Assembly: GCF_004010195.1 (NCBI RefSeq)
Contig: NC_057740.1
Span: forward strand, 20,108,405 to 20,172,404
Source: Chiloscyllium plagiosum
Lineage: Eukaryota
Direction of reading: 5' to 3'
DNA: 64,000 nt
Below, piece by piece: positions 7,988 to 64,000 of this stretch (position 1 is its first letter; each line of letters starts with the position of its first letter). The notes under the pieces are model-generated. The model was not told the origin of the DNA. It saw nothing but the letters and a program-made list of their open reading frames with translations, and made no database searches. The translations under genes were made by a program, and so were the position numbers.

Positions 7988-8075
7988 AGCCCTGATGAAG
8001 GGCTTTTGCCTGAAATGTTGATTTTCCTGCTCCTTGGATGCTGCCTGACCTGTTGTGCTTTTCCACACCACACTA
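7988..8075 (+). mobile_element. Penelope-like pLTR fragment with hammerhead-like core
   Basis: CTGATGA-AGGGC-TTTT-GCCT-GAAA followed by ggatgctgcctgacctgttgtgcttttcca, the same short repeat family seen at 41.9, 52.4, 53.5, 55.4, 56.0 and 59.9 kb. Confidence 0.65.
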
Positions 8076-33530: not shown

Positions 33531-33600
33531 ATGAATTGTAAAAAGTTTAAATCAATCATGTTATTTTGGCATGTGATTGTGAGTAGCCTCTGTCTTTCAG
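33531..33600 (+). CDS. candidate first coding exon (signal peptide) of the mucin gene
   Basis: aaaATG..., 70 nt = MNCKKFKSIMLFWHVIVSSLCLS+G, then donor CAG|GTAAGA. Basic n-region plus hydrophobic h-region; ends in phase 1, matching all downstream PTS exons. Confidence 0.55.
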
Positions 33601-34039
33601 GTAAGAGTTCAAAGTGGCAATACATTAGTTAATTATGACAACATGTAGAGTGATTATTCTATTTTTCAGAAGTATTATGGTAATCTTTGCTAGCAAGAGA
33701 GGAAAAATCGTGGTTTGAATAGTCAGGTTAATTTAGTATTTTTCATTGCAATAATGTTTCATCTTCTTGGATTTAGTTTCTCATTGTTCCTAGGTTACAG
33801 AAATGAAGGAAACCTTTACAATGAGATAGTCAAAAATATATTCATAATGAGAAATGTGGTAAAATCTGATTTGTTTGTGTTAGATATAAGACTAGTTTAA
33901 GACAAGACTGTTTCATGAGGTGAAGTGCAGGTCTGTGAAGAAATGTGCACATGGTAAACGTTGATTGCAAAACACTTTGCAAGTTCAGCTATATTGACAG
34001 TTTAGTGCACTTTACATATTTATGAGACAAATCTTTGTC

Positions 34040-34225
34040 ACAAAACGCGCTGCCTGGAAGTATGGTGGAGGCATGTTCAGTTGATATATTCAAAAAGACA
34101 TTGAATAATTATTTAAATAGAAACAAGGGAAAAGGCAGAGGACCAGCACTTAATCATGATGTTCATTTGGTGATCTGGTACAGAGCAATGGGCTGAATGG
34201 CTCCTCTTCTGTAACACTTCTGTGA
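34040..34225 (+). mobile_element. CR1 3' end fragment
   Basis: ctgcctggaagtatggtggaggc...atgggctgaatggctcctcttctgt. Confidence 0.65.
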
Positions 34226-34424
34226 TTATGATTTTTGCAAAACATTGCCACGACACATCAAATCTGACAAAACAAATGAGAGCTGCTGGAATACTCCTGA
34301 ATCCAATGTTTCAACATGAATCCTTTTCTGTTTCAGATCCTTAAGTGTAGTGATGTTGTGTCTAATTAGAAAATAGCAAACATCAATGAGATAAGTTTGG
34401 GGCTGGTTTAAATTATGTTTCACT

Positions 34425-35955
34425 GTGGAGAATTACTAACATCACTGGAATAATAATCCAGAACCCAAGTCTAATGTTCTGGTGACATGGGTTTGAATCC
34501 CAACATGACAAATGGTTAATTTTGTAATCCATGAAAAGAAACTAGAATAAGAGGAAGTGTATAAAAACCCACCTGTCTCACTAATGTACTTGAAGGAAGG
34601 AATTCTGCCATTCTTACCAGACCTGACCTACATGTGACACCAGATGTAAAATAATCTGTTGGAATTCTATGAAGATGTAACTAGTAGAGTTGACAAGGTG
34701 GAGGCAGTCGATGTGGTGTATTTGGACTTTCAGAAAGTGTTTGACAAAGTCCCACATCAAAGATAATTGTGCAGTATTAAAGCACATGGGATTGGAGGAA
34801 GTGTATTGAGATGGATACAAAACTGGTTAGCAGAGAGGAAACAAAAAGTAGGAATTAATTGATCCTTGTCAAATTGGCAGGCAGTAACTAGTGGGGGTGC
34901 CACAGGGATTGGTGCTAGATCCCCAACTATTCACTATATATATATATATATATATATTAATGATTTGATGTGGGAACAAAATGTATCATCTCAATGTTTG
35001 CAAATGATACCAAGTTGGGTGGGAGGATGAACTGTGATGAGGATGCAGAGATCCTTCAGCATGATCTGGACAGATTGGGTGAGTGGGCAAATTAATGGCA
35101 GGTGCAGTATAATTTGGATAAATGTGACGTTATTCACTTTGGAAGCAAAAACAAGAAGGCAGATTAAGACCGGAATGGGTGTAAACTGGGAGATGGGAGT
35201 GTGCAGCAGGACCTGGGTGTCCTTGTGCAGCAATTGCTTAAGGTCATCATTCAGGTGTAGCAGGCAGTAAAGAAGATAAATGGTATGTTGGCCTTCATTG
35301 CGAGAATTTTTGAGTAAAGGAACGGGGATATGTTGTTGCAGTTACACAGGGCACTGGTGAGGCTTGGTCTCCTTTTTTGAGGAAAGATGCTCTTGTGCTT
35401 GAGGGAGCAGTTTACCAGATTGATTCCAGTCAGTGGGACTGACATATGAAGTGAGATTGACTAGATTAGGATAAAATTTGCTGGTTTTCAGATGAGTGAG
35501 GGGGGAATCTCATAGGGACTTATAAAATTCTAACAAGACAGGGTAAATGCAGGGAAGATGTTCCCAATGGTGCGTGTATCCAGAAATGGGATCACAGTCT
35601 GACAATTTGAAGTGGACCATTTAGGAGGGAGATGAGGAAACATTTCTTCACCCAAAGAGTGGTATGCCTGTGCAATTCATTACCACAGGAAGTAGTTGAT
35701 GCCAGAACATTGAATATATTCAAGAGGTGGCTAGATATAGCACTTGGGGCGAATGGGATCAAAGGTTATTGGGAGAAAGCAGGATTGGGTTATTGAGTTG
35801 AATGATTGGCCACGAACATGATGAATGGCAGAGTAGATTTGAAGGGCCAAATGGCCTCCTCCTGCTCCTATCTTCTATATTACATTGACTTTTAACTGCC
35901 CTCTGGACAACTAGGGATAACCAGTGATAATAAATTCCATGAATGAATTAAAAAC
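34425..35955 (+). mobile_element. SINE-like repeat (34425-34645, resumes ~35885-35955) interrupted by a CR1
   Basis: tRNA-like gggtttgaatccc head and cacctgtctcactaatg...catgtgacaccaga body; continues after the CR1 as ttgacttttaactgccctctg...atgaatgaattaaaaa. Confidence 0.55.
34650..35880 (+). mobile_element. CR1 LINE RT-3' fragment, decayed
   Basis: VDVVYLDFQKVFDKVPH, GVPQG, FANDTKLGG, RKHFFTQRVV motifs and CR1 3' UTR; internal (TA)n expansion at ~34935. Confidence 0.9.
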
Positions 35956-37809: not shown

Positions 37810-38600
37810 ACTGAAATCCAGTTGTATTGAACTTGGCTGCAGGGATTGTAATGGAGCTGCTTGTAGTTGTTGATTCTGTTGTACAGGTGGATGCAACAGT
37901 TAATGTTGAACTCAATACTCCAGTAGTGGCCACTGTACTTGCATTTGATGTTTCTGCTGTTGCAGAGTTGATGCACAGTTGTTGCATAGTTAATGGCATA
38001 ATTGAAACTTAAGGTCAATTCATATTAAGGTACACAAGTACATATTAGTTTACACAATGCATTTATGTACGGTCTGTCCTTGCTATTTTGTGGTTTTTGT
38101 TGAGCAGTGGAATAGTTAATGGTATATTTGAGACTCACATCAAATGTAATCAGATGGATGCAATTATGCATATTTTAGAAAGTGTACTTACCTGCCAGCT
38201 GTCCAAACTATTTTAAATTGCCCAGAATTTGATGTGTTATGTTAAAACTGAAGCAGAAAGGAGTTTGACATTTATGCTTCTCTCCTACATCACCACAGTC
38301 ATTAACATGAAAGTGGTAATGTTCTGAGTTTATCGTCTGGCAGTCACACTACTCGTTCTAGTGAATACATAACAGATAGAATGAACAGATAGAATTTTTC
38401 ACAGATAGTGACCAGTTGAAGTAGTGCCCTGTGTTGTTGAAACTGTGAATGATTCCACTGCTGATGTTGAGGGGGAGCTGCTTGCAGTTGTTTGTGCTGT
38501 TGAACCTGTTGCTCCTGGGAGTCGTTGCTGTAGTCACTGTCTCAGTTGTTGTCTGCTCTGGTAGTTGAGCTCAGTGACGTGACTGTGAAAGTGATTAATG
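37810..38600 (-). pseudogene. inverted, decayed copy of mucin PTS exons C (38582-38413) and A (37956-~37810)
   Basis: Reverse complement matches the array exons (ttcacag|TCACG...CTACTTCAACTG|gtca; ETSNASTVATTGVLSST). The exon C copy has a 2-nt deletion (in-frame TGA) and a 1-nt insertion; the exon A copy lacks its donor. Confidence 0.8.
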
Positions 38601-39049
38601 ACAGTTTTCAGACTACCCGGTGACTTGGAGGCAAATATTACAATTGTTCACCATTACGAATTGCTAAATTCTCTTTGTGCCAATGTACTAGAAAATTTGC
38701 AAGAACATAAATGTGTTAAAAACTGAAACAGGCCAAATGCATAATGAGCCACAAGCTTCAGCGCTCTGTCAGAATGGGTTAACAAAAATGCACCTGAAAT
38801 GTTTTCATAAATTTCTGACCTCACTCAGAATGGCTACAATGCACTGAAATCAAGGAAATGCTGAAGGTCCAGGGCAGACAGTTCCACACAAACCAAGATC
38901 TCATCACACAAAAGTTACTAATAAATAAAGTAATAAAGGATATACTGCTTTGAACCAACACTATCAAAAAAATCTGTAGCACCTAAGGAGATGTAGGTGG
39001 AAATGTTACCAATGAATGATTGACTAATTTGTCCAGGAAATCAGGTTAA

Positions 39050-39335
39050 GGGCAACACAGTGGCTCAGTGGTGAGAACGGCTGCTTCAGAGCAACAGGGG
39101 CCAGGATTTGATTCCACCTTTGGGCGACTGTGTGGAGTTTGCACATTCTCCTCGTGTCTGTGAGGGTTTCTGCTGGGTGGTTCAGCTTCCACCCACAGTC
39201 AAAATGTGCACATTAGGTGGATTAGCTGTGCTACATTGTCCATAGTGTTCAGGGACAATGAGGTTACATGCATTAGCCATGGGTAACACATTGAGAGGGT
39301 AAGAGGATAGGTATGGGTGGGTTGCACTTTGGAGG
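39050..39335 (+). mobile_element. HE1-related SINE
   Basis: gggcaacacagtggctcagtgg...tgtggagtttgcacattctc...gggtgggttgcactttggag. Confidence 0.85.
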
Positions 39336-39403
39336 AAATAAAAATGCAGTTTGCAGATTCTTGTACGTTTCAATTCTGGCATTAATTATATTCACTGAAA
39401 CAG

Positions 39404-42400
39404 CAGAAATATCAACAGCAAGTACTGAGACCACCACTGAAGTACCGAGTCCTACGTCAACAGCTGAATTAACAACTACAAGCAGCTCCACTACAACACC
39501 TGCAGCTGAATCCATGACAACCGAAACAACACAAGAACCTACAACAACTGGTGAGAATCCTAGTCCCATTGGCTGTAATGTATTGATTTCTAATGTTGAG
39601 AAATACATGTACAACAAACTCAATGAAGAAACAATAAATGATGTTCCCAGATTGTGGTAAATTTACAGAGATGTTAGTTGATTTACCATCTTCACATTCT
39701 CATTTTGATCTTTCCCGATGAAGTTTGGAAAGCAGCTTTACATCTCATTGTGAATAAATCAATGCAGTTTGAATATTGAAACACATTTCTGTGTATGGTT
39801 TTCCTTGTACACCTATCTGAATAGCATGCCCCACTTTCACTGCACCAACAGAAATATCAGCTGCAAGTACAGAGACAACCACTGCACTGGCAACCTCTTC
39901 AGCAACTTTTGCATCAACTACCACACCTGGTGCAACAAGCACCGTGACTTCCACTCCAGCATCGACCAGCATCTCAACATCACCGCTCACAACAAGTGGT
40001 GAGTTTGCAAAAAACAATTATCGCCAGTTCCACCTGATTGATTGCAATCCAGTGTAGCATCTGAAGGAATTCAGGAAGTTTTGAAAACATTTCTTACGCA
40101 TGTAATTTTAGATCTATGTCACTGCAGGTCTCAAGGGTACAGGTTGTTGCTCGTATATTTCACAAGATTCAATTTTTATATGTTTATCGTCCTGCCAAAT
40201 TTCACAAACCATGATACTAAAATAATACACCATATTATCAGATGGGTGAACATTTGCACCATTCGATTCCAAGTGGCCTGATAGCCTGACCAAACCTATT
40301 ACTTACTTTTCACAGTCACTCCAGAAACCTCAACCACCAGTGCAGAGACCACGACTGAGACAGTGACTACAACATCAACTCCAGCACCAACAAGTTCAAC
40401 AGCACAAACAACTGTGAGCAGCTCTGCTTCAACATCAGCAGTGGAATCGACAACAGCTTCAACAACACAGGGCTCTACTTCAACTGGTCAGTGGAAATAA
40501 AAAAATCCATATGTACATTAAATTTGGTTGCATTTAATACAAAACTGCATAAAGAGAAGGTGCTGGATTAAGTCAAAATATTACTGCATTTTTGTTCATA
40601 ATTATGAGAACGAAAGTGAGTTACATAAATTTTCTTCCAACATCCGTTTCAATGGAACATCATCCCACCATTAGATACCGGATCAATTAAAATAGCAAGG
40701 ACTACTCCAACCCCTGCAGCTGAATCCACGACAACCGAAACCACACAAGGACCTACAACTACTGGTGAGAATCCTTTTACCTTTGTGTTGTAATTTATTA
40801 ATATCTCAATTTGAGCAGTACTTGGTCAAAAACTCAATGAAGAAACAATTAATGTTGTTCCTTGATTTTAATAACTTTACCGGGACGCTTGTTGATTTGC
40901 CTGGTACCCATTCACATTTTAATCATTCCTGATGAAGTTTGGAAAGCAGCTCTACATCTCATTGTGAATAAATCATTGCAGTTTGTCAACCAAAACACAT
41001 TTCTGTGTATGGTTTCCCTTGTGCACCTATCTGAACCGCGTGTCTTACTTTTACTGCACCAACAGAAATATCAACTGCAAGTACAGAGACAACCACTGCA
41101 CTGGCAACATCTTCAGCAACTCTTGCATCAACTACCACACCTGGTGCAACAAGCACCGTGACTTCCACTCCAGCATCGACAAGCATCTCAACATCACCGC
41201 TCACGACCAGTGGTGAGTTTGCCATAAACATTATCGCCAGTTATACCTGATTGATAGATATCCAGTGTAGTAGCTGATGCAATTCAGAAAGTTTCGCAAA
41301 CATTTCTTCCGCTTCTACTTTTAGGTCTATGACCCTGCAGGTCTCAAGAGTACGGGTTGTTGCTGGTGCATCTCACAAGCTTCAATTTTTATATGTTTAT
41401 TGTCCTGCCAAATTTCACAAACTGTGGTAGTAAAAGAATATAGCACACTGTACAATGGGTGAACATTTGCACCATTCGATTCCAAGTGGCCTGATAGCCT
41501 GACTAAACCTATTACTTACTTTTCACAGTCACTCTCGAAACCTCAACCACCAGTGCAGAGACCACGACTGAGACAGTGACTACAACATCAACTCCAGAAC
41601 CAACAAGTTCAACAGCACAAACAACTGCAAGCAGCTCCGCTTCAACATCAGCAGTGGAATCGACAACAGCTTCAAACACACAGGACACGACTTCAACTGG
41701 TCAGTGAAAATAAAAAATTCCATATGTACATTAAATTTGATTGCATTCAATACAAAACTGCATAAAGAGAAGGTGGTGGATTAAGTCAAAATACCACTGC
41801 ATTTTTGTTCATAATTACGAGAACGAAAGTGAGTTAAATAAATTTTCTTTGAAACTTTATTGCTGGAACAGCACAGCAGGTCAGGCAGCATCCAGGGAAC
41901 AGGAGATTNNNNNNNNNNNNNNNNNNNNNNNNNNNNNNNNNNNNNNNNNNNNNNNNNNNNNNNNNNNNNNNNNNNNNNNNNNNNNNNNNNNNNNNNNNNN
42001 NNCCTGACCTGCTGTGCTGTTCCAGCAATAAAGTTTCAACTTTGATCTCCAGCATCTGCAGACCTCACTTTCTCCACATAAATTTTCTTCCCACTTCTGT
42101 TTCAATGGGACATCATTCCACCATTAGATACCGGATCAATTAGAATAGTGAGGACTTATTGCAGATAAAGGCAACGTGTAAATTAACACATATTTCAATA
42201 TATTAAGACAATGTGAATATAAGTTTCAATGATGCCATTAATTCCATTCACTGCAACTGCAGAAACATCAACTGCAAGTACAGTGACCACTACTGGAGTC
42301 CCAAGTTCTACGTCAATTGCTGCATCCACCAGTACAGCTGAATCAACAACGACAAGCAGTCCCACTACAACCCCTGCAGCTGAATCCACGACAATCGAAA

Positions 42401-45400
42401 CAACACAAGCGGCTCCAACAAGTGGTGAGAATCCTATTACTGTTGTGTTGTAATATATTCAGACCTCAATTTGAGCAGTAGTTGGTCAAAAACTCAATGA
42501 AAAAACAATTAATGTTGTTCCCTGATTTTAATAAATTTACCGGGACGCTAGTTGATTTGCCTGGTACACATTTTCATTTTGATCTTTCCTGACGAAGTTT
42601 GGAAAGCAGCTCTACATCTCATTGTGAATAAATCAATGTAGTTTGTACATCGAAACACATTTCTGTGTATGGTTTTCCTTGTGCACCTATCTGAATCGCA
42701 TGTCTTACTTTTACTGCACCAACAGAAACATCAACTGCAAGTACAGAGACAACCTCTCGAAACCTCAACCACCAGTGCAGAGACCACGACTGAGACAGTG
42801 ACTACAACATCAACTCCAGAACCAACAAGTTCAACAGCACAAACAACTGCAAGCAGCTCCGCTTCAATATCAGCAGTGGAATCGACAACAGCTTCAACAA
42901 CACAGGGCACTACTTCAACTGGTCAGTGGAAATAAAAATTCCATATGTACATTAAATTTGATTGCATTCAATACAAAACTGCATAAAGAGAAGGTGGTGG
43001 ATTAAGTCAAAATACCACTGCATTTTTGTTCATAATTACGAGAACGAAAGTGAGTTACATAAATTTTCTTCCCACTTCTGTTTCAATGGGACATCATCCC
43101 ACCATTAGATACCGGATCAATTAGAATAGTGAGGACATATTGCAGATAAAGGCAACGTGTAAATTAACACATATTTCAATATATTAAGACAATGTGAATG
43201 TAAGTTTCAATGATGCCATTAATTCCATTCACTGCAACTGCAGAAACATCAACTGCAAGGACAGTGACCACTACTGGAGTCCCAAGTTCTACGTCAATTG
43301 CTGCATCCACCAGTACAGCTGAATCAACAACTACAAGCAGTTCCACGACAACCCCTGCAGCTGAATCCACGACAATCGAAACAACACAAGCGGCTCCAAC
43401 AAGTGGTGAGAATCCTATTACTGTTGTGTTGTAATATATTCAGACCTCAATTTGAGCAGTAGTTGGTCAAAAACTCAATGAAAAAACAATTAATGTTGTT
43501 CCCTGATTTTAATAATTTTACCGGGACGCTAGTTGATTTGCCTGGTACACATTCTCATTTTGATCTTTCCTGATGAATTTTGGAAAGCAGCTCTACATCT
43601 CATTGTGAATAAATCAATGTAGTTTGTACATCGAAACACATTTCTGTGTATGGTTTTCCTTGTGCACCTCTCTGAATCGCATGTCTTACTTTTACTGCAC
43701 CAACAGAAACATCAACTGCAAGTACAGAGACAACCACTGCACTGGCAACCTCTTCATCAATTCTTGCATCAACTACCACATCTGGTGCAACAAGCACCGT
43801 GACTTCCACGACAGCATCGACAAGCATCTCAACATCACCGCTCACTACCAGTGGTGAGTTTGCAATATACAATTATCGACAGTAGCACCTGATTGATTCC
43901 AATCCAGTGTAGCATCTGAAGGTATTCAGAAAGTTTTGAAATCATTTCTTAAGCTTCTACTTTTAGATCTATGAAACTGCAGGGCTCAAGAGTACAGGTT
44001 GTTCCTGGTGCATTTCACAAGCTTCAATTTTTATACATTTATCGTCCTGCAAAATTTCACAAACCGTGGTACTGAAACAATATATCAAATTATAAGATGG
44101 GTGAACATTTGCACCATTCGATTTCGAGTGGCCTGATTGCCTGACATAACATACTACTTACTTTTCACAGTGACTCCAGAAACCTCAGCTACCAGTGCAG
44201 AGACCACGACTCAGACAGTGACGACAACATCAACTCCAGCACCAACAAGTTCAACAGCACAAACAACTGCGAGCAGCTCCCCTTCAACATCAGCAGTGGA
44301 ATCGACAACAGCTTCAACAACACAGGGCTCTACTTCAACTGGTCAGTGGGAATAAAAAATTCCATATGTACATTAAATTTGGTTGCATTTAATACAAAAC
44401 TGCATAAAGAGAAGGTGCTGGATTAAGTCAAAATATTACTGCATTTTTGTTCATAATTATGAGAACGAAAGTGAGTTACATAAATTTTCTTCCAACTTCC
44501 GTTTCAATGGGACATCATCCCACCATTAGATACCGGATCAATTAAAATAGCAAGGACTTATTGCAGATAAAGGCAATGTGTAAATTAACATATCTTTAAA
44601 TATATTAAGACAATTTGAATGTAAGTTTCAATGATGCCATTAATTCCATTCACTGCAACAGCTGAAACATCAACTGCAAGTACAGTGACCACTACTGGAG
44701 TACCGAGTTCTACGTCAACTGCTGCATCCACCAGTACAGCTGAATCAACAACTACAAGCAGCTCCACTCCAACCCCTGCAGCTGAATCCACGACAACCGA
44801 AACCACACAAGGACCTACAACTACTGGTGAGAATCCTTTTACCTTTGTGTTGTAATTTATTAATATCTCAATTTGAGCAGTACTTGGTCAACTCTTGCAT
44901 CAACTACCACATCTGGTGCAACAAGGAACAGGAGAATCGACGTTTCGGGCATAAGCCCTTCATAAGCCCTTATTAATTTATTAATATCTCAATTTGAGCA
45001 GTACTTGGTCAAAAACTCAATGAAGAAACAATAAATGTTGTTCCCAGACTCTAGTAATTTTACTCAGACGTTAATTGATTTGCCAGCTTCACATTCACAG
45101 ATTGATCTTTCCCGATGAAGTTTGGAAAGCAGCTTTACATCTCATTGTGAATAAATCAATGCATTTTGCAAATCAAAACAAATTTCTACGTATGGTTTTC
45201 CTTGTACACCTATCTGAATCGCATGTCTTACTTTCACTACACCAACAGAAACATCAACTGCAAGTACAGAGACAACCACTGCACTGGCAACCTCTTCATC
45301 AACTCTTGCATCAACTACCACACCTGGTGCAACAAGCACCGTGACTTCCACTCCAGCATCGACAAGCATCTCAACATCACCGCTCACGACCAGTGGTGAG

Positions 45401-51400: not shown

Positions 51401-52333
51401 TTAATTCCAATCCAGTGTAGCATCTGAAGGTATTCAGAAAGTTTTAAAACATTTCTTAAGCTTCTACTTTTAGGTCTATGAAACTGCAGGTCTCAAGCGT
51501 TCAGGTTGTTGCTGGTGCATTTCACAAGCTTCAATTTTTATACATTTATCGTCCTGCAAAATTTCACAAACCGTGGTACTGAAAGGATATATCAAATTAT
51601 AAGATGGGTGAACATTTACACCATTCGATTCCGAGTGGCCTGATTGCCTGACATAACGTATTACTTACTTTTCACAGTGACTCCAGAAATCTCAACCACC
51701 AGTGCAGAGACAACAACTGAGACAGTGACGACAACATCAACTCCAGCACCAACAAGTTCAACAGCACAAACAACTGCAAGCAGCTCGGCTTCAACATCAG
51801 CAGTGGAATCGACAACAGCTTCAACCACACAGGGCACTACTTCAACTGGTCAGTGGAAATAAAAAATTCCATATGTTCATTAAATTTGGTTACATTCAAT
51901 AGAAACCTGCATAATGAGAAGTTGCTGGATTAAGTCAAAATATTACTGCACTTTTGTTCATAATTATGAGAACGAAAGTGAGTTACATAAATTTTCTTCC
52001 CACTTCTGTTACAATGAGATATCATCCCACCATTATATACCAGATAAATTAGAATAGCGAGGACTTATCGCATATAAAGGCAATGTGTAAACTCATACAT
52101 TACTAAAAATATTAATACAAATCGAATGTAAGTTCCAATTATGCCATTAATTACATTCACTGCTACAGCAGAAACATCAACAGCAAGTACAGTGACCACT
52201 ATTGGAGTACCGAGTTCTACGTCAACTGCTGCATCCACCAGTACAGCTGAATCAACAACTACAAGCAGCTCCACTACAACCCCTGCAGCTGAATCCACGA
52301 CAACCGAAACAACACAAGGACCTACAACAACTG
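39404..52333 (+). CDS. mucin Ser/Thr-rich (PTS) domain encoded by ~25 small phase-1/phase-1 exons
   Basis: Exon A (ETSTASTVTTTGVPSST...TTQGPTTT; AG..G|gtgaga): 39404/7-39550, 42263-42424, 43244-43405, 44662-44826, 46206-46367, 47623-47787, 50757/60-50921, 52169/72-52333. Exon B (147 nt; ETSTASTETTTALATSSSTLAS...SPLTTS; G|gtgagt): 39852-39998, 41066-41212, 43707-43853, 45249-45395, 46669-46815, 49811-49957, 51215-51361. Exon C (171 nt; VTPETSTTSAETTTETV...QGSTST; G|gtcagt): 40316-40486, 41529-41699, 44171-44341, 45712-45882, 47132-47302, 48513-gap, 50273-50443, 51678-51848. All intact copies are multiples of 3 and stop-free. Confidence 0.88.
41850..42075. mobile_element. palindromic Penelope pLTR insertion in mucin intron
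   Basis: ttattgctggaacagcacagcaggtcagg and its inverted copy cctgacctgctgtgctgttccagcaataa flank a gap; target duplication ataaattttctt on both sides. Confidence 0.75.
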
Positions 52334-52373
52334 GTGAGAATCCTTTTACCTTTGTGTTGTAATTTATTAATAT

Positions 52374-52468
52374 GCTGAAAATGTGTTGCAGGAAAAGCGC
52401 AGCAGGTCAGGCAGCATCCAAGGAACAGGAGAATCGACGTTTCGGGCATAAGCCCTTCATACGCCCTT
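52374..52468 (-). mobile_element. Penelope pLTR fragment in mucin intron
   Basis: ggaaaagcgcagcaggtcaggcagcatccaaggaacaggagaatcgacgtttcgggcataagcccttca flanked by duplicated taatttattaatat. Confidence 0.75.
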
Positions 52469-52736
52469 ATTAATTTATTAATATCTCAATTTGAGCAGTA
52501 CTTGGTCAAAACCTCAATGAAGAAACAATCACTGTTTTACCCAGACTCTAGTAATTTTACTCAGACGTTAATTGATTTGCCAGCTTCACATTCACAGATT
52601 GATCTTTCCCGATGAAGTTTGGAAAGCAGCTTTACATCTCATTGTGAATAACTCAATGCAGGTTGTAAATCAAAACACATTTCTGTGTATGGTTTTCCTT
52701 GTTCACCTATCTGAATCGTATGTCCCACTTTCACTG

Positions 52737-53236
52737 NNNNNNNNNNNNNNNNNNNNNNNNNNNNNNNNNNNNNNNNNNNNNNNNNNNNNNNNNNNNNNNN
52801 NNNNNNNNNNNNNNNNNNNNNNNNNNNNNNNNNNNNNNNNNNNNNNNNNNNNNNNNNNNNNNNNNNNNNNNNNNNNNNNNNNNNNNNNNNNNNNNNNNNN
52901 NNNNNNNNNNNNNNNNNNNNNNNNNNNNNNNNNNNNNNNNNNNNNNNNNNNNNNNNNNNNNNNNNNNNNNNNNNNNNNNNNNNNNNNNNNNNNNNNNNNN
53001 NNNNNNNNNNNNNNNNNNNNNNNNNNNNNNNNNNNNNNNNNNNNNNNNNNNNNNNNNNNNNNNNNNNNNNNNNNNNNNNNNNNNNNNNNNNNNNNNNNNN
53101 NNNNNNNNNNNNNNNNNNNNNNNNNNNNNNNNNNNNNNNNNNNNNNNNNNNNNNNNNNNNNNNNNNNNNNNNNNNNNNNNNNNNNNNNNNNNNNNNNNNN
53201 NNNNNNNNNNNNNNNNNNNNNNNNNNNNNNNNNNNN
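52737..53236. other. assembly gap of exactly 500 N (probable unknown-size scaffold join)
   Basis: Round size; the other gaps are 323, 94 and 942 N. Confidence 0.8.
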
Positions 53237-53483
53237 TTATGGTGCTGACATACTATCTGATTGTTAACAAAATACAGAGAATCTAGGCTTAATTCCACAA
53301 CCTTCACAAATGCAATTTTGAGCTCTGAGAGGTGCTGCATAAATTATATTCATTGTCAGCAAATAAATTGCATGGTCCAACATGGACCCTGTTCTTCTGA
53401 CCAACTAATGTTAGGGAACTTAAATTGTGACTTTGCACATATTCCCTTTCATTACAAGTGGTGCTTGGTATAATGCATTAGAA

Positions 53484-53648
53484 CTGAAAATGTGTTGCTG
53501 AAAAAGTGCAGCAGGTCAGGCAGCATCCAAGGAGCAGGAGAATCGACATTTCGGGCATGAGCTCTTCTTCCTGACGGGCTGTGCTTTTCCAGTAACACGA
53601 TTTTGGCTCTGATCTCCAGCATCTGCAGTCCTCACTTTCTACTCGAAG
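53484..53648. mobile_element. head-to-head Penelope pLTR insertion, same site as 55986-56150
   Basis: Inverted halves gctgaaaaagtgcagc.../gctgtgcttttccag; flanked by taatgcatt(a/t)gaac duplication; absent from units 3-5. Confidence 0.75.
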
Positions 53649-53737
53649 ATAATGCATTTGAACACTGACTACCCATTCATCAATATATAGCATGTGAGAC
53701 AAACAAAGAGTAGGCCGAATATTGACTGGATACCTAC

Positions 53738-54932
53738 CATTTACATGCAGGCTGTCTTTGTCTAATGTGTATGGCCCCAACATCGAAAAATTGTCGGTCT
53801 TATTTTCAACCACATGATACACAAGCACTCTATTGATGTCCTGAATGGTGGAATCATTTTTGAAGGAACACATTGCCGTCACTGTGCTTCTGTCACCATC
53901 GACCATGCTGCAAAATATTGAAAGAAGATTAGCATCAAAGGGAGGAACTTTGAGCCAAAGTAGTCACCATATCACCAATGGAGGGCAATGTTTAGAGGCA
54001 AATCATTTGTCAGCAAAAGAAAACTCTATGCAAGCAACATTTCATTACACATCCATTCACTGTAATAACAACAACTTTTTCCTTCTAGATAACAGTTAAT
54101 TTCTCATTCACTGTAATCTTCAAGATTCAAGTGCAAGATCAGTGTCAATATTACATATAAATTATCATATTTCTTACCTGAGTGATTGAAATCTGCAACT
54201 GGAGAACGTAGCATTTATGCTGCTGTTTTTGAACAGGTCATTGAGCTACAGGGAATAAAATCAAACATAATTACATTACAAAAAAGTAATGTGCAACTAA
54301 AATTTCTCTTTCAAAAAGATTTGTTGAATTATCTCACCTTGTTTGCAATCATGCCTGTCTGATTGGAAGAGTTTGATTCAATGTCTTGGAATGATGGACG
54401 ACTTATAATAAATGTCAGATTATAGTCAGTAAGTATGAGTTCCTCTGTTGGAGTTACAAGTGGAACAACAGCTGTGGAAAAAGAGGAAAACAGTTTATCT
54501 CACACACACAAATACACTGAGGATGCATTGGAAGAACAAGAGCCTATTGCTGAAATAGTGACCAGATTTACGAGGAACAATGGGAGATCCCATGAAAATT
54601 GGTTTAGAGAGTTAATTATGATTCAATCTAGGCCTGCTGTATTGATGACAAGAAAGATGTCAAGTATTAGCCCTGAACTTGTGCAAGCTTACCAGCTTCT
54701 GCATAAGTGCTGACAATTGCAACACACTAACTTTAAACAATACTCATTTACCGAATCAACTATAATATAAACAAGGCAAATTCAAAATAATAAGGTTACT
54801 CTGACTGAATCATCCATTAAATCACAACGTGATCTTGGCAGAATTGAAATAAATGCGGACGGGTAAAAATATTCCAAAAAATAAAGAAAACGAGTTTCCA
54901 CTCACTGGTTACAAGAAGTGCCTCATGGTAAT
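53738..54932 (-). CDS. MUC16: MUC16/CA125-like SEA repeat, unit 1
   Basis: Exons 54932-54906 (27 nt, DYHEALLVT), 54471-54338 (134 nt, TVVPLVTPTEELILTDYNLTFIISRPSFQDIESNSSNQTGMIANK), 54245-54178 (68 nt, LNDLFKNSSINATFSSCRFQSLS), 53907-53738 (170 nt, MVDGDRSTVTAMCSF...LGPYTLDKDSLHVN). All GT-AG, phases 1-1-0-2-1. The symbol means MUC16-like; orthology is unproven. Confidence 0.85.
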
Positions 54933-55395
54933 CTGGAACAAAAAGAGCATCGTGTTGTCAGACAAGTCTATCACAATGTGTCTCATTAAATAAATGTGAA
55001 TGAAATGATGTAATACGATAAAGTAGCCAATCCGATCAATGCCCAGTCTCTGAGAAGACATTTCAGATGAATGTGAGAACGGTCAATGTAAATAACATCA
55101 AGTGAGGAATTTACAGATATTATCATAAATCTGTTATTTTGGGGACACAATTATTTTGAAGTACCACATTATGTTGCCAAATTTCAAATGAGCCAAACTT
55201 TAATTGGCATGTTGTTGAAATGTAATTCTTCATCTGTAATGTTTCTTGCGACCTCCTGTGTGATGTGCAATACGTCATATCATGGTTGTTGGCAGATATT
55301 GCTCTAAATATTACAGCAAATTCCAAACAAATTGAGGACTGAGTTTAACATGTAAATAGCTTCATGTATTTTGAGTGTGCAGGTGTCAAACGATA

Positions 55396-55553
55396 GTAGG
55401 AGAAAGTGAGGACTGCAGATGCTGGAGATCAGAGTTGAAAATGTATTGCTGGAAAAGCGCAGCAGGTCAGGCAGCATCCAAGGAGCAGGAGAATCGACTT
55501 TTCGGACTTTAGCCCGATTCCTGCTGCGCTTTTACAGCAACACATTTTCAGCT
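55396..55553. mobile_element. head-to-head Penelope pLTR insertion
   Basis: ggagaaagtgaggactgcagatgctggag...gctggaaaagcgcagcagg and inverted cctgctgcgcttttacagcaacacattttcagct. Confidence 0.75.
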
Positions 55554-55985
55554 GTTAAAAATAGTGCCAAACTCAAAGAGGAAATGACTGAGAATTTAAT
55601 ACATTTTTCACAATAGTCCCTTTTGCCTTCTTTCTTTCAAGAGGGAAAAGAAATGGAATAAGTTTGAGAGAGATCCAACAATTTCTAAACTCAATTCCAG
55701 AATTATGATTCGGTTTGGGATGCAATACATGGTACACTCCAGTGTAAAAGGAATTTATGGTGCTGACATACTATCTGATTGTTAACAGAATACAGAGAAT
55801 CTCGGCTTAATTCCACAACCTTCACAAATGCAATTTTGAGCTCCAAGAGCTGCTGCATAAATTATATTCATTGTCAGCAAATAAATTGCATGGTCCAACA
55901 TGGATCCTGTTCTTAGGGAACTTAAATTGTGACTTTGCGCATATTCCCTTTCATTACAAGTGGTGCTTGGTATAATGCATTAGAA

Positions 55986-56150
55986 CTGAAAATGTGTTGC
56001 TGGAAAAGTGCAGCAGGTCAGGCAGCATCCAAGGAGCAGGAGAATCGATGTTTCGGGCATGAGCCCTTTTTCCTGACCGGCTGTGCTTTTCCAGCACACA
56101 TTTTCAGCTCTGATCTCCAGCATCTGCAGTCCTCACTTTCTCCTAGAATA
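55986..56150. mobile_element. head-to-head Penelope pLTR insertion (paralog of 53484-53648)
   Basis: Same structure and same target duplication as in unit 1. Confidence 0.75.
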
Positions 56151-56238
56151 TAATGCATTTGAACACTGACTAACCATTCGTCAATATATAGCATGTGAGA
56201 CAAACAAAGAGTAGGCCGAATATTGACTGGATACCTAC

Positions 56239-57425
56239 CATTTACATGCAGGCTGTCTATGTCCAATGTGTATGGCCCCAACATCGAAAAATTGTCGGTC
56301 TTGTTTTCAAACACATGATACACAAGCACTCTATCGATGTCCTGAATGGTGGAATCATTTTTGAAGGAACACATTGCCGTCACTGTGCTTCTGTCACCAT
56401 CGACCATGCTGCAAAATATTGAAAGAAGATTAGCATCAAAGGGAGGAACTTTGATCCAAAGTAGTCACCATATCATCAATGGAGGGCAATGTTTAGAGGC
56501 ATGTCATTTGTCAGCAAAGGAAAACTCTGTGCAAGCAACATTTCATTACACATCCATTCACTGTAATAACAACAACTTCTTCCTTCTAGATAACAGTTAA
56601 TTTCTCATTCACTGTAATCTTCAAGATTCAAGTGCAAGATCAGTGTCAATATTACGTATAAATTATAATATTTCTTACCTGAGTGATTGAAATCTGCAAC
56701 TGGAGAATGTTGCATTTATGCTGCTGTTTTTGAACAGGTCATTGAGCTACAGGGAATAAAATCAAACATATTTAATAAAAGAAAATAGAAACGTGGAACA
56801 AAAATTAGTCCTTCAAAAAGATTTGTTGAATTATCTCACCTTGTTTGCAATCATGCCTGTCTGATTGGAAGAGTTTGATTCAATGTCTTGAAATGATGGA
56901 CGACTTATAATAAATGTCAGATTGTAATCAATAAGTATGAGTTCCTCTGTTGGAGTTACAAGTGGAACAACAGCTGTGGAAAAAGAGGAAAACAGTTTAT
57001 CTCATACACAGAAATACACTGAGAATGTATTGGAAGAAGAAGAGCCTATTGCTGAAATAGTGGCCAGATTTACCAGGAACAACGGGAGAGCCCATGAAAT
57101 TTGATTTCAAGAGTTGATTATTATTCAATCTAAATCTGCTCTATTGATGACAAGAATGGTGTCAAGCTTTCAGCCTGAATTTGTGCAATCTTACCATCTA
57201 TCGCGTAAGTGCTAACAATTGCAAATCGCTAACTTTAAACAATATTCATGTATCTATTCACGAATTAGTCAATCAGTATCAAGCCCAAGATAATCTGGAT
57301 ACTCTGACTGAATCATTCATTAAGTCGCAACATAACATTGGCAGAATTGAGATAAATGTGGACAAGCAGACAATATTCCCAAAAACAATTCTACTCACTG
57401 GTTACTAGACGTGCCTCATGGTAAT
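56239..57425 (-). CDS. MUC16: MUC16-like SEA repeat, unit 2
   Basis: Exons 57425-57399, 56973-56840, 56746-56679, 56408-56239; ends LGPYTLDIDSLHVN. Confidence 0.85.
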
Positions 57426-58405
57426 CTAGAACAAAAAGAACACTGTGGTGTCAAGCAAGGCTATCACAATGTGTCTCACTAAATAAATGTGCAAGAAATT
57501 ATGTAAGACGTAAATAAATGTCAGATTCTGATCAATGCCCAGACTCCGTGATGAATGTCAGAACAGACAATGTAAATAACATCCAGTGAAGAATTTTCAG
57601 AAATTTTTGTGAAAACTGGGTCTTGTGCAATGTTGGGACCACATTTAATTTCAAGAACTATATCACATTTATAAATGTCAAATGAGCCTAAGATTTAATT
57701 GGTATGTTGTAGATGTGTAATTATTAGTCATTAACGTTTACTGCTGTCTCCTGTCAGAAATGTGCAATGTATGATAGCTTTGACAAGAGATTGCTGTAAC
57801 TATGACAGCAAAGTCCCAACAAATTGTGGACTGAGTGTAACATGTAAATACCTTCATGTATCCTGTGTGTGCAGATGTTAAAAATAATGCCAAACTCAAA
57901 GATGAATTGATTCAGAATCTCATCCATTTTATACATTAGTGTCTTTTTTATTTCAAGGGGCCAAAGAAATGGAGTGAGTTGTCTGAGCCACTTTTGAAAG
58001 ACATCAACAAATCTCTAAATTCAATTCCAGAATTATGATTCATTCTTGGATGCGATAGATGGTAGAATCCAACGTAAAAAGATTTTATGCTGCTCAAATA
58101 TTGTCACTTTATTAACACAATACAGATATTCTTAGCATAATCCCACAATCTGCATGAATGGAATTTTTAACTCAGAGACATATTGCATAAATAAAATGCT
58201 TTGTCAGCCAACAAATTCCATGGTCACCATAGACTCTGTCCTTTTGACCAAAATATGTTGGAGAATTTGAATTGTGAATTTTCACATGCTCCCTTAATTT
58301 GCAAGTAGCTCATTGGATAATGTATTAGAACACTGTCTACCTATTCCTCAATACATAGCATGTGAGATAAACAAAGAGTAGGCCAAATATTGACTGGATA
58401 CCTAC

Positions 58406-59620
58406 TATTTACATAGAGGCTGTTTTTGTCCAATGTGTATGGCCCCAATATCGAAGCATCTTTCGTCTTATTTTCAAACACATGATACACAAGCACTCTA
58501 TCGATGTCCTGAATGGTGGAATCATTTTTGAAGGAACACATTGCCATCACTGTGCTTCTGTCACCATCGACCATGCTGCAAAACATGGAAAGAAGATTAG
58601 CATCAAAGGCAGGAACTGTGATCCGATGTAGTCACCATGTCACCACGATAAACATGATGACTTCAATGGAGGACAATTTTTAGAGGGGTATCATTTTTCA
58701 GTAAAGCAAACCTCTTTGCAATCAATATTTCATTCCACATCCATTCTGTGTAATAACAATGACTTCTTCCTTTTGGATAACTGTTAATTTATCATTCACT
58801 GTAAGTTTATGAGAGCAAGACTCAAGTGCAGATCATTGTAAATATTATGTGTAAATTGCAAGATTTCTTACCTGAATGACTGTAATCTGCAGCTGGCAAA
58901 TGTAGCATTTATGCTGCTGTTTTTGAACAGGTCATTGAGCTTCAGAGGAAAAAAAACATTCTCCAGGTTAGGAAACTAAAGAAGTGTGGAATGAAATTTC
59001 CCCTTCAAATAGATGTTATAAAGTTTCTCACCTCGTTTGCAATCATGCCTGTCTGATTGGAAGAGTTTGATTCAATGTCTTGGAATGATGGACGACTTAT
59101 AATAAATGTCAGATTATAGTCAGTAAGTATGAGTTCCCCTGTTGGAGTTACAAGTGGAACTACAGCTGTGGAAAAAGAGGAAAACAGTTTATCTCACACA
59201 CAGAAATACACTGAGGATGCATTGGAAGTACAAGAGCCTATTACTGAAATAGTGGCCAGATTTCAATACGAAATCCCATGAAATTTGATTTCAAGAGTTG
59301 ATTATTATTCAATCTAAATCTGTTGTATTGATGACAAGAAAGGTGTCAAGCTTGTAGCCTGAATTTGTGCAAACTTACCATCTATCGCAGAAGTGCTGAC
59401 AACTGCAAATCGCTAACTTCAAATAATATTCATTTAAGTATTCAAGAATAAATTAATCAGTATAAAGTCCAAGATAATCTGGATACTCTGACTGAATCAT
59501 ACACTAAATCAAAATATAATCTTGGCAGAATTGAGATGAATGTGGACAAGCAGACAATATTCCCAAAGAAAATGAAAGATAGTTTCTACTCACTGGTAGC
59601 AAGACGTGCCTCATGGTAAT
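58406..59620 (-). CDS. MUC16: MUC16-like SEA repeat, unit 3
   Basis: Exons 59620-59594, 59165-59032, 58939-58872 (AAG acceptor), 58575-58406; ends LGPYTLDKNSLYVN (human MUC16: LGPYTLDRNSLYVNG). Confidence 0.85.
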
Positions 59621-59889
59621 CTGGAACAAAAATAACATCATGTTGTCAAACAAGGCTATCACAGTGTGTCTTACTAAATGTGCAAGAAATGAGGTAAGAC
59701 GTTAATGGCAGTAAATCTGACTCCGAGAAGGCCTTTCAGATGAATGAGAGAACAGACAATGTAAATAACATCAAGTGAGGAATTTTCAGACATTTTTGTG
59801 AAAGCTGTTCTTTGTGCAACGTTGGGACCACATTTAATTTCAAGAACATATCACATTGACAAATGTCAAATGAGTCAAACAGTTAACTA

Positions 59890-60415
59890 GGCAAAAGTGG
59901 GTACTGCAGATGTTGGAGATTAGAGTGGTGCTGGAAAAGCACAGCAGGTCAGGCAGTATCTGAGGAGCAGGAAAATCAACGTTTTGGGCAAAATCCCTTC
60001 ATCAGGAATGAATCCTGATGCTGCCTGACCTACTGTGCTTTTCCATCATCACTCTAATTAGATTAGATTTTAGATTAGATTAGATTATTTACAGTGTGGA
60101 AACAGGCCCTTCGGCCCAACAAGTCCACACCGACCCGCCGAAGCGTAACCCACCCAGACCCATTCTCCTACATTTACCCCTTCACCTAACACTACGGGCA
60201 ATTTAGCATGGCCAATTTGCCTAACCTGCACAGTTTTTGTGTTTGTGGGAGGAAACCGGAGCACCCGGAGGAAACCCACGCAGACACAGGGAGAACGTGC
60301 TAACTCCACACAGTCAGTCGCCTGAGGCGGGAATTGAACCCGGGTCTCTGGCGCTGTGAGGCAACAGTGCTAACCACTGTGCCACCGTGCCGCCCACTAA
60401 TCTTGACTCCAGACA
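59890..60415. mobile_element. palindromic Penelope pLTR insertion carrying a nested HE1 SINE
   Basis: gcaaaagtgggtactgcagatg...gctggaaaagcacagcaggtcaggcag...cccttcatcagg and inverted gatgctgcctgacctactgtgcttttcca; resumes after the SINE as taatcttgactccag. Confidence 0.7.
60058..60395 (-). mobile_element. young full-length HE1-type SINE
   Basis: (ttaga)n tail through gccaccgtgccgccc; near-identical to the copy at 19991-20315. Confidence 0.93.
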
Positions 60416-61106
60416 TTTAACTGTTGTAGATGTGTAATTATTAATCTGTAATGTATCCTGCTATGTCCTGTCTGAAATATGATACCATGGTTTTGAGAAG
60501 AGATTGCTGTAACTATGACAGCAAAGTCCCTAAAAATTGTGGACTGAGTGAAACATGTAAATACCTTCTTTATTCAAGTGTGCAGACATTAAAAGATAGT
60601 GCTAAACTCAAAGACAAACTGAATCAGCATTTAACACATTTTACATAATAGTGTCTTTTGTTTTCTTTGTTTCAAGGGGCCAAAGAAATGGAATGAGTTG
60701 TCTGAGCCTCTTCTGACAGAGTTCACAGAATTTCTAAATTCAATTCCAGAATTACGATTCATACTGGGAATCAATAGATGGGAATCCAACGTAATAAACT
60801 TTTATGCTTCTCATGTATTGTTGCTTTATTAACACAATACAGACATTCTTGGCTTAATCCTACAATTTGCATGAATGCAATTTTTGTGTAGATAATATTC
60901 TTTGTCAGCAAAAACATTCCATGGTCACCATAGACTCTGTCGATCTGGCCAAAATATGTTGGATGATTTGAATTGTGACTTTTCCCATGTTCCCTTCCAT
61001 TGCAAGTATTTCATCAGATAATGCATTAGAACACTGTCTACTTATTCCTCAATATATAGCATGTGAGATAAACAAAGAGTAGGCCAAATATTGACTGGTT
61101 AACTAC

Positions 61107-62305
61107 CATTTACATAGAGGCTGTCTTTATCCAATATGTATAGCCCCAATGTCGAAGCTTCTTTTGACTTATTTTCAAACACATGATACACATGCACTCT
61201 ATCGATGTCCTGAATGGTAGAATCGTTTTTGAAGGAACACATTGCCGTCACTGTGCTTCTGTCACCATCGACCATGCTGCAAAACATGGAAAGCAGATTA
61301 GAATCAAAGTTAGGAACTTTGATCCGAGGTAGTCACCGCGTCACCAAGATAAACATGATGACTTCAATGGAGGACACTTTTTACAGGCAAATCATTTGTC
61401 AGCAAAGCAAACCTCTTTGCAATGAACATTTCATTACACATCTATTCCATGTAATTACAGTGACCTCTTCCCGCTGGATAACTGTTAATTTATCATTCAC
61501 TGTAATTTTCTGAGAGCAAGACTCAAGTGCAAGATCATTGTAAATATTATGTATAAATTGAAATATTTTATACCTGAATGACTGTAATCTGCAGCTGGCA
61601 AATGTCGCATTTATGCTGCTGTGTTTGAACAGGTCATTGAGCTACAGAGAAAAAAAAACAAGCATTCTTTAGGTAAAGAAACTAAAGAAATGTGGAATGA
61701 AAATTTTCCTTTCAAATAGATGTTACAAAGTGTCTCACCTCAATTGCAATCATGCTTGTCTGATTGGAAGAGTTTGATTCAATGTCTTGGAATGATGGAC
61801 TACTTATAATAAATGTCAGATTGTAGTCAATACTACTTACTTCCTCTGTTGTTGTTACAAGTGGAGTTGCAGCTGTGGAAACGGAGGCAACAGTTTATTT
61901 CATACAAAGAAATAAGCTGAGAATGTATTGAAAGATTTACCCAGAGCAACGGGAGATCCCATGGAAATTGATTTCAAGAGTTAATTATGATTCAGTCTAA
62001 ATCTGCTGCATTAATGGCTGGAAGGCTGTCAAGCATTCACCCTTAATTTGTGTAAGCTTACCAGCTACCTCATCAGTGCTGACAATTACAGCACGCTAAG
62101 CTCAACCAATCATAGTTTACCTATTCATCTAAACAGTAATCAGTATTAAACTCAAGATAATCTGATGATAGTCTTGATGAATCATTCATTAAATGAGAGC
62201 ATATACTTCACCAGAAAACCTAAAAATATGCACAAGCTGAAAATATTTTAGAAAAAGATGAAATGTGTGCCTACTCACTGGTTATAAGACGCACCTCATG
62301 GTAAT
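61107..62305 (-). CDS. MUC16: MUC16-like SEA repeat, unit 4
   Basis: Exons 62305-62279, 61872-61739, 61641-61574, 61276-61107; ends LGLYILDKDSLYVN. Confidence 0.83.
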
Positions 62306-63263
62306 CTAGATACAAAAGAGGATTGAGTGGTCACACAAAGTTATGACAATGTGTCTCACTAATTAAACATACAATAATTAAACTATCACAATAATCGTAA
62401 CTAATCTAATCAATGTCAACAATTCTAAGAATAGCTTCAAGATGAATGTAAGAACTGACAGATGTAAATTTCATCCAGTGAGGAATGTTTAGGCATTGTT
62501 ATGCAGACTTTTATTTGAGCAGTGTTAGGAGCACTTTGGCAATTTTGCCATCACTTTCATAGCAGTCAAAAAAGCTGGCTTGTTGTTGATGTGTAATTAA
62601 TGATCTGTAATAGTTCCTATTTCCTGTCTGTAATGTGCAACAAACCATATCATGGCTTTAGGAACATATCACTGCAAATATTATAGCAAATTTAACAATA
62701 TGTTATTGGTCTGTGTCTATTATGCAAAAAAAAATCTTCATTTATTCTGCATGTGTAGCCAGCTTCAAACTGAATGAGAAGTTAATATATTTTTGGTAAT
62801 GGTCTCTTTTGGCTTCTTTCTTTCAAAGGTATGAGAAATGGAATAAGTTACCTGAGCCTCTTTTGAAAGAGTTCAAAAAGTTCCCATCTCAGTTACAGAG
62901 TAATGATTCCTTCTGGCATGCAACAGATGGTAATAAGAATTTATGTTTCTGTCATATTGTCATATTATTAACACAGTACAGAGGCTTGTATGACGAATAT
63001 ACAATCTCCATGAATGCAATTTCAGGCTTAGGTAGGTATTGGGTAAATGATATTTTGTGACAACAAAAAAAATTGAACTGTCTACCACAGAATTTGTCCT
63101 TCCAATCAACAAATGGTGGAGCATTTGAATTTGACTTTGTACATGTTCCCTGCCATTGCAAGTGGTGCTTGGTATCATGCATTAGAATACTGCCCAGCTA
63201 TTCATGAAAACCTATTGTGTGTGACAAACAAATAATTAAGCTGAATATTGACTGGATAACTAC

Positions 63264-64000
63264 CATTTACAAAGAGGCTGTCATTGTCCAATGTGTATGG
63301 CCCGAACTTCGAAACATCTTTGGTCTTATTTTCAAACACATGATACACAAGCTCTCTGTCAACGTTCTGAACAGTAGAATCATTTTTGAAGGAACATATT
63401 GCTGTCACTGTGCTGCTGTCACCATTGATTATGCTGCAACAAAATCAAAAGATTAACTTGAAAGGCAGGTACTTTGATCTGTTGTAGTCACCACATCACC
63501 AATAAAGGCATGATAACTTCAGTTGTGAATACTTTTAAAAGAAGACTTATTTGTCCACAAAGCAGAGCTCTGTGTGATGTGTATTTCTCTGCCCATCCAT
63601 TTTTTGTAATAACAATGGCCTTTACCTTCAGGGTATCTGTTAATTTTGCATTAAGTGCAATGCTCTGTGAGCAAGACTCAACTTCAAGATCATTGTAAAT
63701 ATTACACGTAAATGACAATATTTTTTACCTGAATGACTGAAATCTGCAGCTGGCGAATGTAGGATTTATGGTGCTGTTTTTGAACAGATCATTGAGCTAC
63801 AGGGAAAGAAAATAAAACATACTTTTGATTGAGAAACAAAAGAAATTTGGAATGAAAATTTCCCCTTCAAATCAATTTGTCAAATTATCTCACCTCATTT
63901 GCAATCATACTTGTCTGATTGGAAGAGTTTGATTCAATATCTTGGAATGATGGGTCACGTATAATAAAAGTTATGTTATAGTCAATAAGATTTGATTCCT
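63264..64000 (-). CDS. MUC16: MUC16-like SEA repeat, unit 5 (partial, runs off window)
   Basis: Exons >64000-63894, 63796-63729, 63433-63264 (SIINGDSSTVTAICSFKNDSTVQNVDRELVYHVFENKTKDVSKFGPYTLDNDSLFVN). Confidence 0.83.

Follow-up and report, generated by a model that had tools for sequence, protein, structure and literature searches.

Exon blocks and gaps at the locus

We examined a 64,000-nucleotide stretch of the genome of the shark Chiloscyllium plagiosum (assembly GCF_004010195.1, contig NC_057740.1, positions 20,108,405 to 20,172,404 of the forward strand; hereafter the window), which carries parts of large MUC16-like mucins. On its plus strand lie a signal-peptide exon and a long array of exons coding for proline-, threonine- and serine-rich (PTS) sequence, and on its minus strand, beyond a gap of 500 Ns, lies a series of exon cassettes coding for SEA domains. 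A short terminal exon on the plus strand, near the left end of the window, belongs to the same subject. The features on which the argument depends are these.

1207-1299, plus strand: terminal coding exon of the gene called paralogue 1 below (end of the membrane span, cytoplasmic tail and stop), with a phase-0 AG acceptor and a TAG stop at 1297-1299
33531-33600, plus strand: signal-peptide exon, with an ATG at 33531, 70 coding nt and a GT donor at 33601, phase 1
39404-52333, plus strand: array of PTS exons of types A, B and C, with a tandem unit of about 1.4 kb
52737-53236, no strand: 500-N gap, presumably a Hi-C scaffolding join with the wrong orientation
53738-54932, minus strand: SEA cassette 1, the last before the gap, exons 54932-54906, 54471-54338, 54245-54178 and 53907-53738
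56239-57425, minus strand: SEA cassette 2, exons 57425-57399, 56973-56840, 56746-56679 and 56408-56239
58406-59620, minus strand: SEA cassette 3, exons 59620-59594, 59165-59032, 58939-58872 and 58575-58406
61107-62305, minus strand: SEA cassette 4, exons 62305-62279, 61872-61739, 61641-61574 and 61276-61107, matching the third SEA unit of protein P0001 of Chiloscyllium punctatum
63264-64000, minus strand: partial SEA cassette 5, a partial exon reaching in to 63894, then 63796-63729 and 63433-63264, approximately the third SEA unit of its gene

The original prediction had described the signal and PTS exons on one strand and the SEA cassettes on the other as facing blocks, each broken in mid-intron at the 500-N gap, and this is what we find. 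The left edge of the gap ends 9 nt short of a B-exon acceptor; its right edge falls 501 nt inside an intron that measures 959-1487 nt in the remaining SEA units, tandem repeats being interrupted at both edges. Four runs of Ns are present in the window, at 20523-20845 (323), 41909-42002 (94), 48656-49597 (942) and 52737-53236 (500); the last is the sole run of a round 500, in keeping with the earlier remark that it differs from the other three, and the switch from plus to minus strand falls there.

The signal exon codes 23 codons plus one nucleotide, and a hydropathy profile gives the 23-residue signal-like peptide a hydrophobic core. In the array, A exons measure 144-165 nt, B exons 147 nt and C exons 171 nt, all of phase 1-1, which amounts to about 161 aa per unit, and the copies are mostly 81-98% identical to one another by self-BLAST. 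Twenty-two exons (8 A, 7 B and 7 C) are open and have intact splice sites. Four further exons are broken, and a degenerate copy of part of the unit lies within intron 1.

37819-38741, minus strand: degenerate inverted partial copy of the PTS unit, 72-82% identical to array units by self-BLAST
40704-40764, plus strand: broken A exon, 5'-truncated
42726-42921, plus strand: broken B/C fusion, out of frame
48089, plus strand: broken B exon without a donor
48513, plus strand: broken C exon, cut by the 942-N gap

The broken exons may be put down to local misassembly of the repeat. The inverted copy, of which the C-like exon is frameshifted and the A-like exon lacks the donor of the array, stands in gap-free sequence (no N occurs from 20846 to 41908) and is an older, real local inversion or duplication. 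Abrupt junctions are seen in the array at 40690-40704, 42754, 44891-44974, about 48231 and 52371-52471, where intron passes into mid-exon, B is fused to C, a donor is lost or repeat fragments are inserted; they are probably local misassemblies of a collapsed repeat, or else real deletions. Inside the first C exon, at 40414, stands a GTGAG that could be a cryptic donor out of phase, in addition to the in-phase donor at 40487. On either side of the 94-N gap (region 41850-42075) lie the two halves of a short dispersed repeat in inverted orientation, which looks like the insertion into a PTS intron of an element able to form a hairpin.

On the minus strand, the four full SEA cassettes of 399 nt consist of four exons each (27, 134, 68 and 170 nt), all open, and a fifth is cut by the end of the window. 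Their exon phases are 1-1, 1-0, 0-2 and 2-1, and the earlier statement that every junction is of phase 1 is thus correct for the cassette ends and the PTS exons, and incorrect for the inner SEA junctions, of phases 0 and 2, as well as for the four PTS exons that are broken as assembled. The MUC16-like character assigned to these exons is borne out by the multiple tandem SEA cassettes and by the last exon of cassette 2, which matches solved MUC16 SEA chains (8vm1, 8gkl and 7sa9; E 1e-6 to 4e-5). When Pfam SEA was run on single exons of the window, one of five was matched, weakly (cassette 5, E 0.0022, below the curated cut-off); the congener protein P0003 (GCC37309.1) has nine Pfam SEA stretches with 290 bits. 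All four full units have two cysteines 18 residues apart and lack a GS[VI][VI] (GSVV-type) motif, and each unit carries 6-8 N-glycosylation sequons.

In sequencing run X20, presumably RNA, one contig carries the splice from an A to a B exon, and a spliced contig of the cassette 3 type joins SEA exons over the 68-nt middle exon, so that in a relative the PTS and the SEA exons are both spliced in the predicted way. The single-cell run X21, of which about 2 in 100 were read, gave next to no exon depth. Summed DNA depth is 72-261 over bins of the PTS array, 70-77 over cassette 1 and 5-8 over the unique SEA contigs, and although such depth is not copy number, the higher values over the PTS bins and cassette 1 suggest collapsed copies.

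The terminal exon at 1.2 kb had been missed. The original prediction reported that no terminal exon is present, which is true within 33.5-64 kb, whereas the terminal exon of the SEA gene lies on the plus strand further left in the window. When 25 relatives were compared with positions 1-39300 by tblastn, one locus was found, 1207-1296 on the plus strand, besides one match of chance level (E 0.48).

Two MUC16-like paralogues in sharks and rays

With one SEA exon as query, six proteins from Chiloscyllium and Rhincodon were obtained among 11 candidates, at 75-96% identity, by which the DNA comes from a shark near Chiloscyllium; a search with GCC37309.1 gave 62 longer proteins among 5,434 candidates, and a scan of cluster representatives gave 162 matches. 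A tree built on the C-terminal 260 residues of 15 selected proteins showed two elasmobranch clades, with sharks and batoids in each. One, paralogue 1, contains P0003 and the proteins of Pristis and Hemitrygon (support 98/98); the other, paralogue 2, contains P0022 and P0029 of C. punctatum together with proteins of Mustelus, Scyliorhinus and two skates (support 99/99). A lungfish row has a long branch and is of unsure placement.

The SEA block and the exon at 1.2 kb belong to paralogue 1. In a quick tree of SEA half-domains (78 rows, 56 columns, near-duplicates within a protein removed), all five half-domains of the window fall in a group of 32 rows that are all of paralogue 1 (SH-like approximate likelihood ratio test, 98). 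At best they share 51-55/56 residues with paralogue 1 and 26-30/56 with paralogue 2, a comparison that is fair because C. punctatum is represented in both sets. The units also run in the same order as those near the N-terminus of the paralogue 1 array in C. punctatum: cassettes 1 and 2 correspond to a unit divided between P0001 and P0002, with 55 of 56 residues in the last exon of cassette 1 identical to the start of P0002, and cassette 5 agrees in 55 of 56 residues with the second unit of P0001. The tail exon is identical in 29 of 30 residues to the paralogue 1 tail of P0003, as against 14 of 26 for the paralogue 2 protein P0022. The last exon of one paralogue is therefore on the plus strand at 1.2 kb, with early SEA units of the same paralogue on the minus strand at 53-64 kb, so that the two point toward each other with the 5' end of another gene between them, whereas in C. 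punctatum GCC37309.1 both the SEA units of the window and the tail are present in a single chain.

The PTS block resembles paralogue 2. Compared with Mustelus P0032, 34 of 54 residues agree for the A exon, 28 of 48 for B and 28 of 56 for C, where the maxima of 60 shuffles were 26, 25 and 27; the match of the C exon is thus marginal. These matches recur in P0032 in the order A-B-C with a period of about 160 aa, and the ABC unit also matches the N-terminus of Scyliorhinus P0079 above shuffled and reversed controls. We scored the unit, forward minus reversed, against the 62 PTS-bearing proteins among about 209 (at least 200 aa, with 0.40 serine plus threonine in some 150-aa stretch). The four best scores (+120, +86, +55 and +45) all come from proteins of paralogue 2 in sharks; +24 ranks fifth, and below the top six the remaining 56 proteins have a mean of -0.2 with a standard deviation of 11. 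Among 15 proteins assigned to paralogue 1, some of them only probably, none reaches 0.40 serine plus threonine in 150 aa and none exceeds +11 forward over reversed, although only two of the 15 (P0023 and P0115) are informative, the other 13 being isoforms or having no new N-terminus. In these two signal-bearing models the signal peptide is separated from the SEA domains by 178 residues (Hemitrygon P0023) or 457 residues (Leucoraja P0115), with no ABC signal. Judging from these sequence similarities, the PTS array probably belongs to paralogue 2, and from its position the signal exon would be the first coding exon of the same gene. Some sharks may have further copies or fragments of paralogue 2, as in Mustelus, where P0171 (XP_078054852.1), a short paralogue 2-like model of SEA-PTS-SEA composition, is on the same contig as P0032 (XP_078054850.1) and has a nearly consecutive accession.

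Arrangement of the two genes

We consider it very probable that two tandem MUC16-like genes of the same strand were misassembled here by a flip of the left scaffold at the 500-N join. Most likely, then, the facing arrangement is an assembly artefact, while the exons themselves are real and the two genes are ordinary members of a known family. Gene 1 (paralogue 1) would consist of a stack of about 20 SEA domains followed by a membrane span and a tail, with an N-terminus that is short and non-repetitive in relatives; gene 2 (paralogue 2) would begin with a signal peptide, followed by a long PTS array of many exons, SEA repeats, a membrane span and a tail. The assembly would have broken inside the SEA array of gene 1 and inside the PTS array of gene 2, and the piece between the breaks (window positions 1-52736 and leftward) would have been set back to front against its neighbour at a join of fixed length.

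Let X be the left piece (late SEA units and tail of gene 1, a repeat-rich spacer of 32 kb, and the signal exon and PTS array of gene 2), Y the right piece (the first part of gene 1 with its early SEA units) and Z what remains of gene 2. Correctly assembled, they would follow one another as Y-X-Z, with gene 1 head-to-tail before gene 2, and an in-place flip of X would give X followed by reversed Y. A flip of the left scaffold would therefore bring the PTS array of gene 2 up against reversed early SEA units of gene 1, and the order in the window is indeed the gene 1 tail (plus), 32 kb, the gene 2 signal and PTS exons (plus), the gap, and the early SEA units of gene 1 (minus). Both ends of X would fall in tandem repeats, where assemblies break. 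About two more SEA units would lie beyond position 64000, about ten more, the membrane span and the tail would follow cassette 1, and the main membrane-span exon of paralogue 1 would sit to the left of the window. We infer both the orientation error and, as the exact repair, a single in-place flip of the left scaffold; the assignment to two genes and the artefactual nature of the orientation are each firmer than that exact repair.

The order of accessions in other species fits a head-to-tail pair, placing paralogue 2 beside the 3' end of paralogue 1. On one contig of 90.19 Mb in C. punctatum the order is XP_072449713 (5' piece of gene 1), 712 (its 3' piece) and 711 (paralogue 2), and on one chromosome of Leucoraja XP_055514215 (5' part of gene 1) is followed by 216 (gene 2), with 609-611 giving the direction of gene 1. 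In doing so we take consecutive accession numbers to follow chromosomal position. As for the gap, 500 Ns is the default filler of 3d-dna and SALSA2 (PMC9292758), and a benchmark gives orientation errors of 4.3% for 3D-DNA and states that misoriented contigs disturb gene prediction (PMC7672694).

Several observations weigh against this arrangement. The accessions do not give the strand of paralogue 2. The C. punctatum paralogue 2 model P0022 has no near-identical ABC array (about 50%), whereas the SEA exons match their congener at 91-98%, and the array would have to sit upstream of that model. A search based on an alignment of 12 exons, aimed at any Chiloscyllium protein that carries the ABC array, passed none of 7,998 scored candidates, all of 99-2000 aa, which for low-complexity sequence is weak evidence, and four other paralogue 2 models (P0019, P0021, P0027 and P0118) give no clear ABC signal. 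Comparison of the signal peptide gives scores of 26-39 with either paralogue and with the lungfish protein, so that its similarity does not separate the paralogues. Lastly, among the matches listed from four runs on 49598-64000, in which SINE (short interspersed element) matches dominate, no piece bridges the gap or either true junction. The joints listed from the same runs include none from PTS to SEA, and the read comparison as a whole neither supports nor refutes the orientation. The read comparison was one of short contigs and 150-nt reads, with 2,600 joints and 202,867 pieces beyond those listed. A match of about 85 bp common to the PTS and SEA sides (52375-52458 with 53484, 55436 and 55986) was considered as a link between the blocks and rejected, since it also matches 7994-8078 and has very high depth, like a dispersed repeat.

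Other explanations can be offered for the facing blocks. The original prediction preferred a mis-oriented join that hides one gene of signal, PTS and SEA exons, and a mis-oriented scaffold join of Hi-C type remains the best reading of the 500-N gap. The domain order and the phase-1 cassette ends are compatible with one gene, spliced contigs of both kinds occur in run X20, no Chiloscyllium model with an ABC array was retrieved and the signal peptide is not diagnostic. Such a gene would require a second copy of paralogue 1 to own the tail at 1.2 kb and an ABC array in paralogue 1, yet the ABC repeat matches paralogue 2 proteins and gives no signal above +11 in the set of 15 assigned to paralogue 1 (certainly or probably), and the retrieved C. 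punctatum pieces of paralogue 1 make one continuous array. Since the SEA block is of paralogue 1 and the PTS block resembles paralogue 2, repair of the orientation parts the two blocks rather than uniting them, and a single gene is very unlikely. A marginally better, though still slight, chance attaches to two genes and an artefact of another kind, in which the SEA scaffold was moved from upstream and inverted or repeats, as a redundant haplotype copy, early SEA units that gene 1 already has. This would agree with all the paralogue assignments and with the 500-N join, and it needs two errors or a duplicate where a single flip suffices; contigs of DNA run X1 over 57.3-64 kb have 0-4 differences at a depth of 5-8 and neither require nor exclude a duplicate.

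The original prediction also raised two convergent genes, and in this it had the number of genes right and their geometry wrong. Truly convergent genes, with the 3' halves of both missing at the gap, would be permitted by the accession order taken alone, and the blocks do come from different paralogues, but the signal exon is preceded, on the plus strand at 1.2 kb, by the last exon of paralogue 1, which is not inside the gap, and a third gene would be needed, which leaves this explanation scarcely credible. Least credible of all is a real inversion in the lineage or the individual with breakpoints in the SEA array of gene 1 and the PTS array of gene 2: an older real inversion of PTS sequence does exist at 37.8-38.7 kb in gap-free sequence, but the strand switch coincides with a filler gap of fixed length, and both genes would be disrupted, yet reading frames are open and splice sites intact in all four full SEA cassettes and in 22 PTS exons. 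We therefore retain the flipped scaffold over a tandem pair.

The flagged geometry thus amounts mainly to a correction, as flipping the SEA block onto the PTS block would make a chimeric gene of two paralogues. Beyond that, it appears rather likely that sharks and rays possess an old, so far undescribed head-to-tail pair of MUC16 duplicates that splits the MUC16 design, paralogue 2 having a long, exon-modular, O-glycosylated PTS region and paralogue 1 being an almost PTS-free stalk of about 20-28 N-glycosylated SEA domains. A literature search over titles and abstract openings, with most subscription papers outside it, found no publication on shark MUC16 duplicates or such a pair, which tables of gene families in papers on shark genomes could mention. 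The proteins of relatives are already annotated as mucin-16-like, and the public gene models of the pair are fragmentary. The conserved tandem pair and the candidate first exon of paralogue 2 are a by-product of modest use to specialists in mucins and shark genomes. If the division is true, PTS-poor paralogue 1 would be a natural test of the role of a SEA stack without a mucin domain. MUC16 is a barrier protein of the apical glycocalyx, and by analogy both genes may function in the same way, gene 2 being O-glycosylated on its PTS region and gene 1 mainly N-glycosylated on its SEA stack.

Other repeats and comparison with known systems

Elsewhere in the window we noted a fragment of a Pogo/Tigger-type DNA transposase at 8705-9169 on the plus strand (Pfam HTH_Tnp_Tc5 above the cut-off, the start of DDE_1 below it) and a broken copy of a LINE (long interspersed element) at 10232-12768 on the minus strand, with RVT_1 (E 7e-34) and endonuclease domains. 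LINE-like fragments near 30.7 kb and at 34.7-35.9 kb have no Pfam match. A G-rich minisatellite of 29 bp at 19080-21091 has about 31, 7 and 9 copies, split by a SINE-like element and the 323-N gap, and a head-to-tail duplicate of about 220 bp occupies 23311-23743 with 93% identity.

The join resembles known misorientations by Hi-C scaffolding with 3d-dna and SALSA2 in that a uniform 500-N filler stands at the strand switch. It differs in that the piece involved, far from being a very short contig, is at least 52.7 kb long and has sized gaps of its own.

Among proteins, the closest to the SEA block and tail is paralogue 1 of C. punctatum (XP_072449713.1, XP_072449712.1 and GCC37309.1), which shares the SEA exons (51-55/56), the collinear N-terminal units and the tail (29/30). 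The window has fewer near-identical middle units than P0001, and places on opposite strands what GCC37309.1 holds in one chain. The paralogue 2 proteins of sharks (Mustelus XP_078054850.1, Scyliorhinus torazame GCB59870.1 and C. punctatum XP_072449711.1) share with the PTS array a repeat of about 160 aa whose three parts follow one another as A-B-C, at only 50-63% identity, and their SEA, membrane and tail exons are absent from the window. These models have no signal peptide, for which the window gives a candidate first exon.

Mammalian MUC16 (CA125) is a single-copy gene whose SEA repeats have two cysteines enclosing a loop and no cleavage motif of the MUC1 GSVV type; in human five exons code for a SEA unit and a few giant exons for the PTS region. 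Among human mucins no other is known to carry several SEA domains in tandem (PMC1552070). The genes of the window are similar in their tandem SEA domains, in the two cysteines per repeat and in the tail, with its pair of tyrosines and HL[DE]. In contrast, their cysteine loop is of 18 residues, where Pongo, Equus and emu have 19 (as amniotes mostly do), each SEA unit is coded by four exons, the PTS region is divided into many small exons, and sharks and rays have two paralogues.

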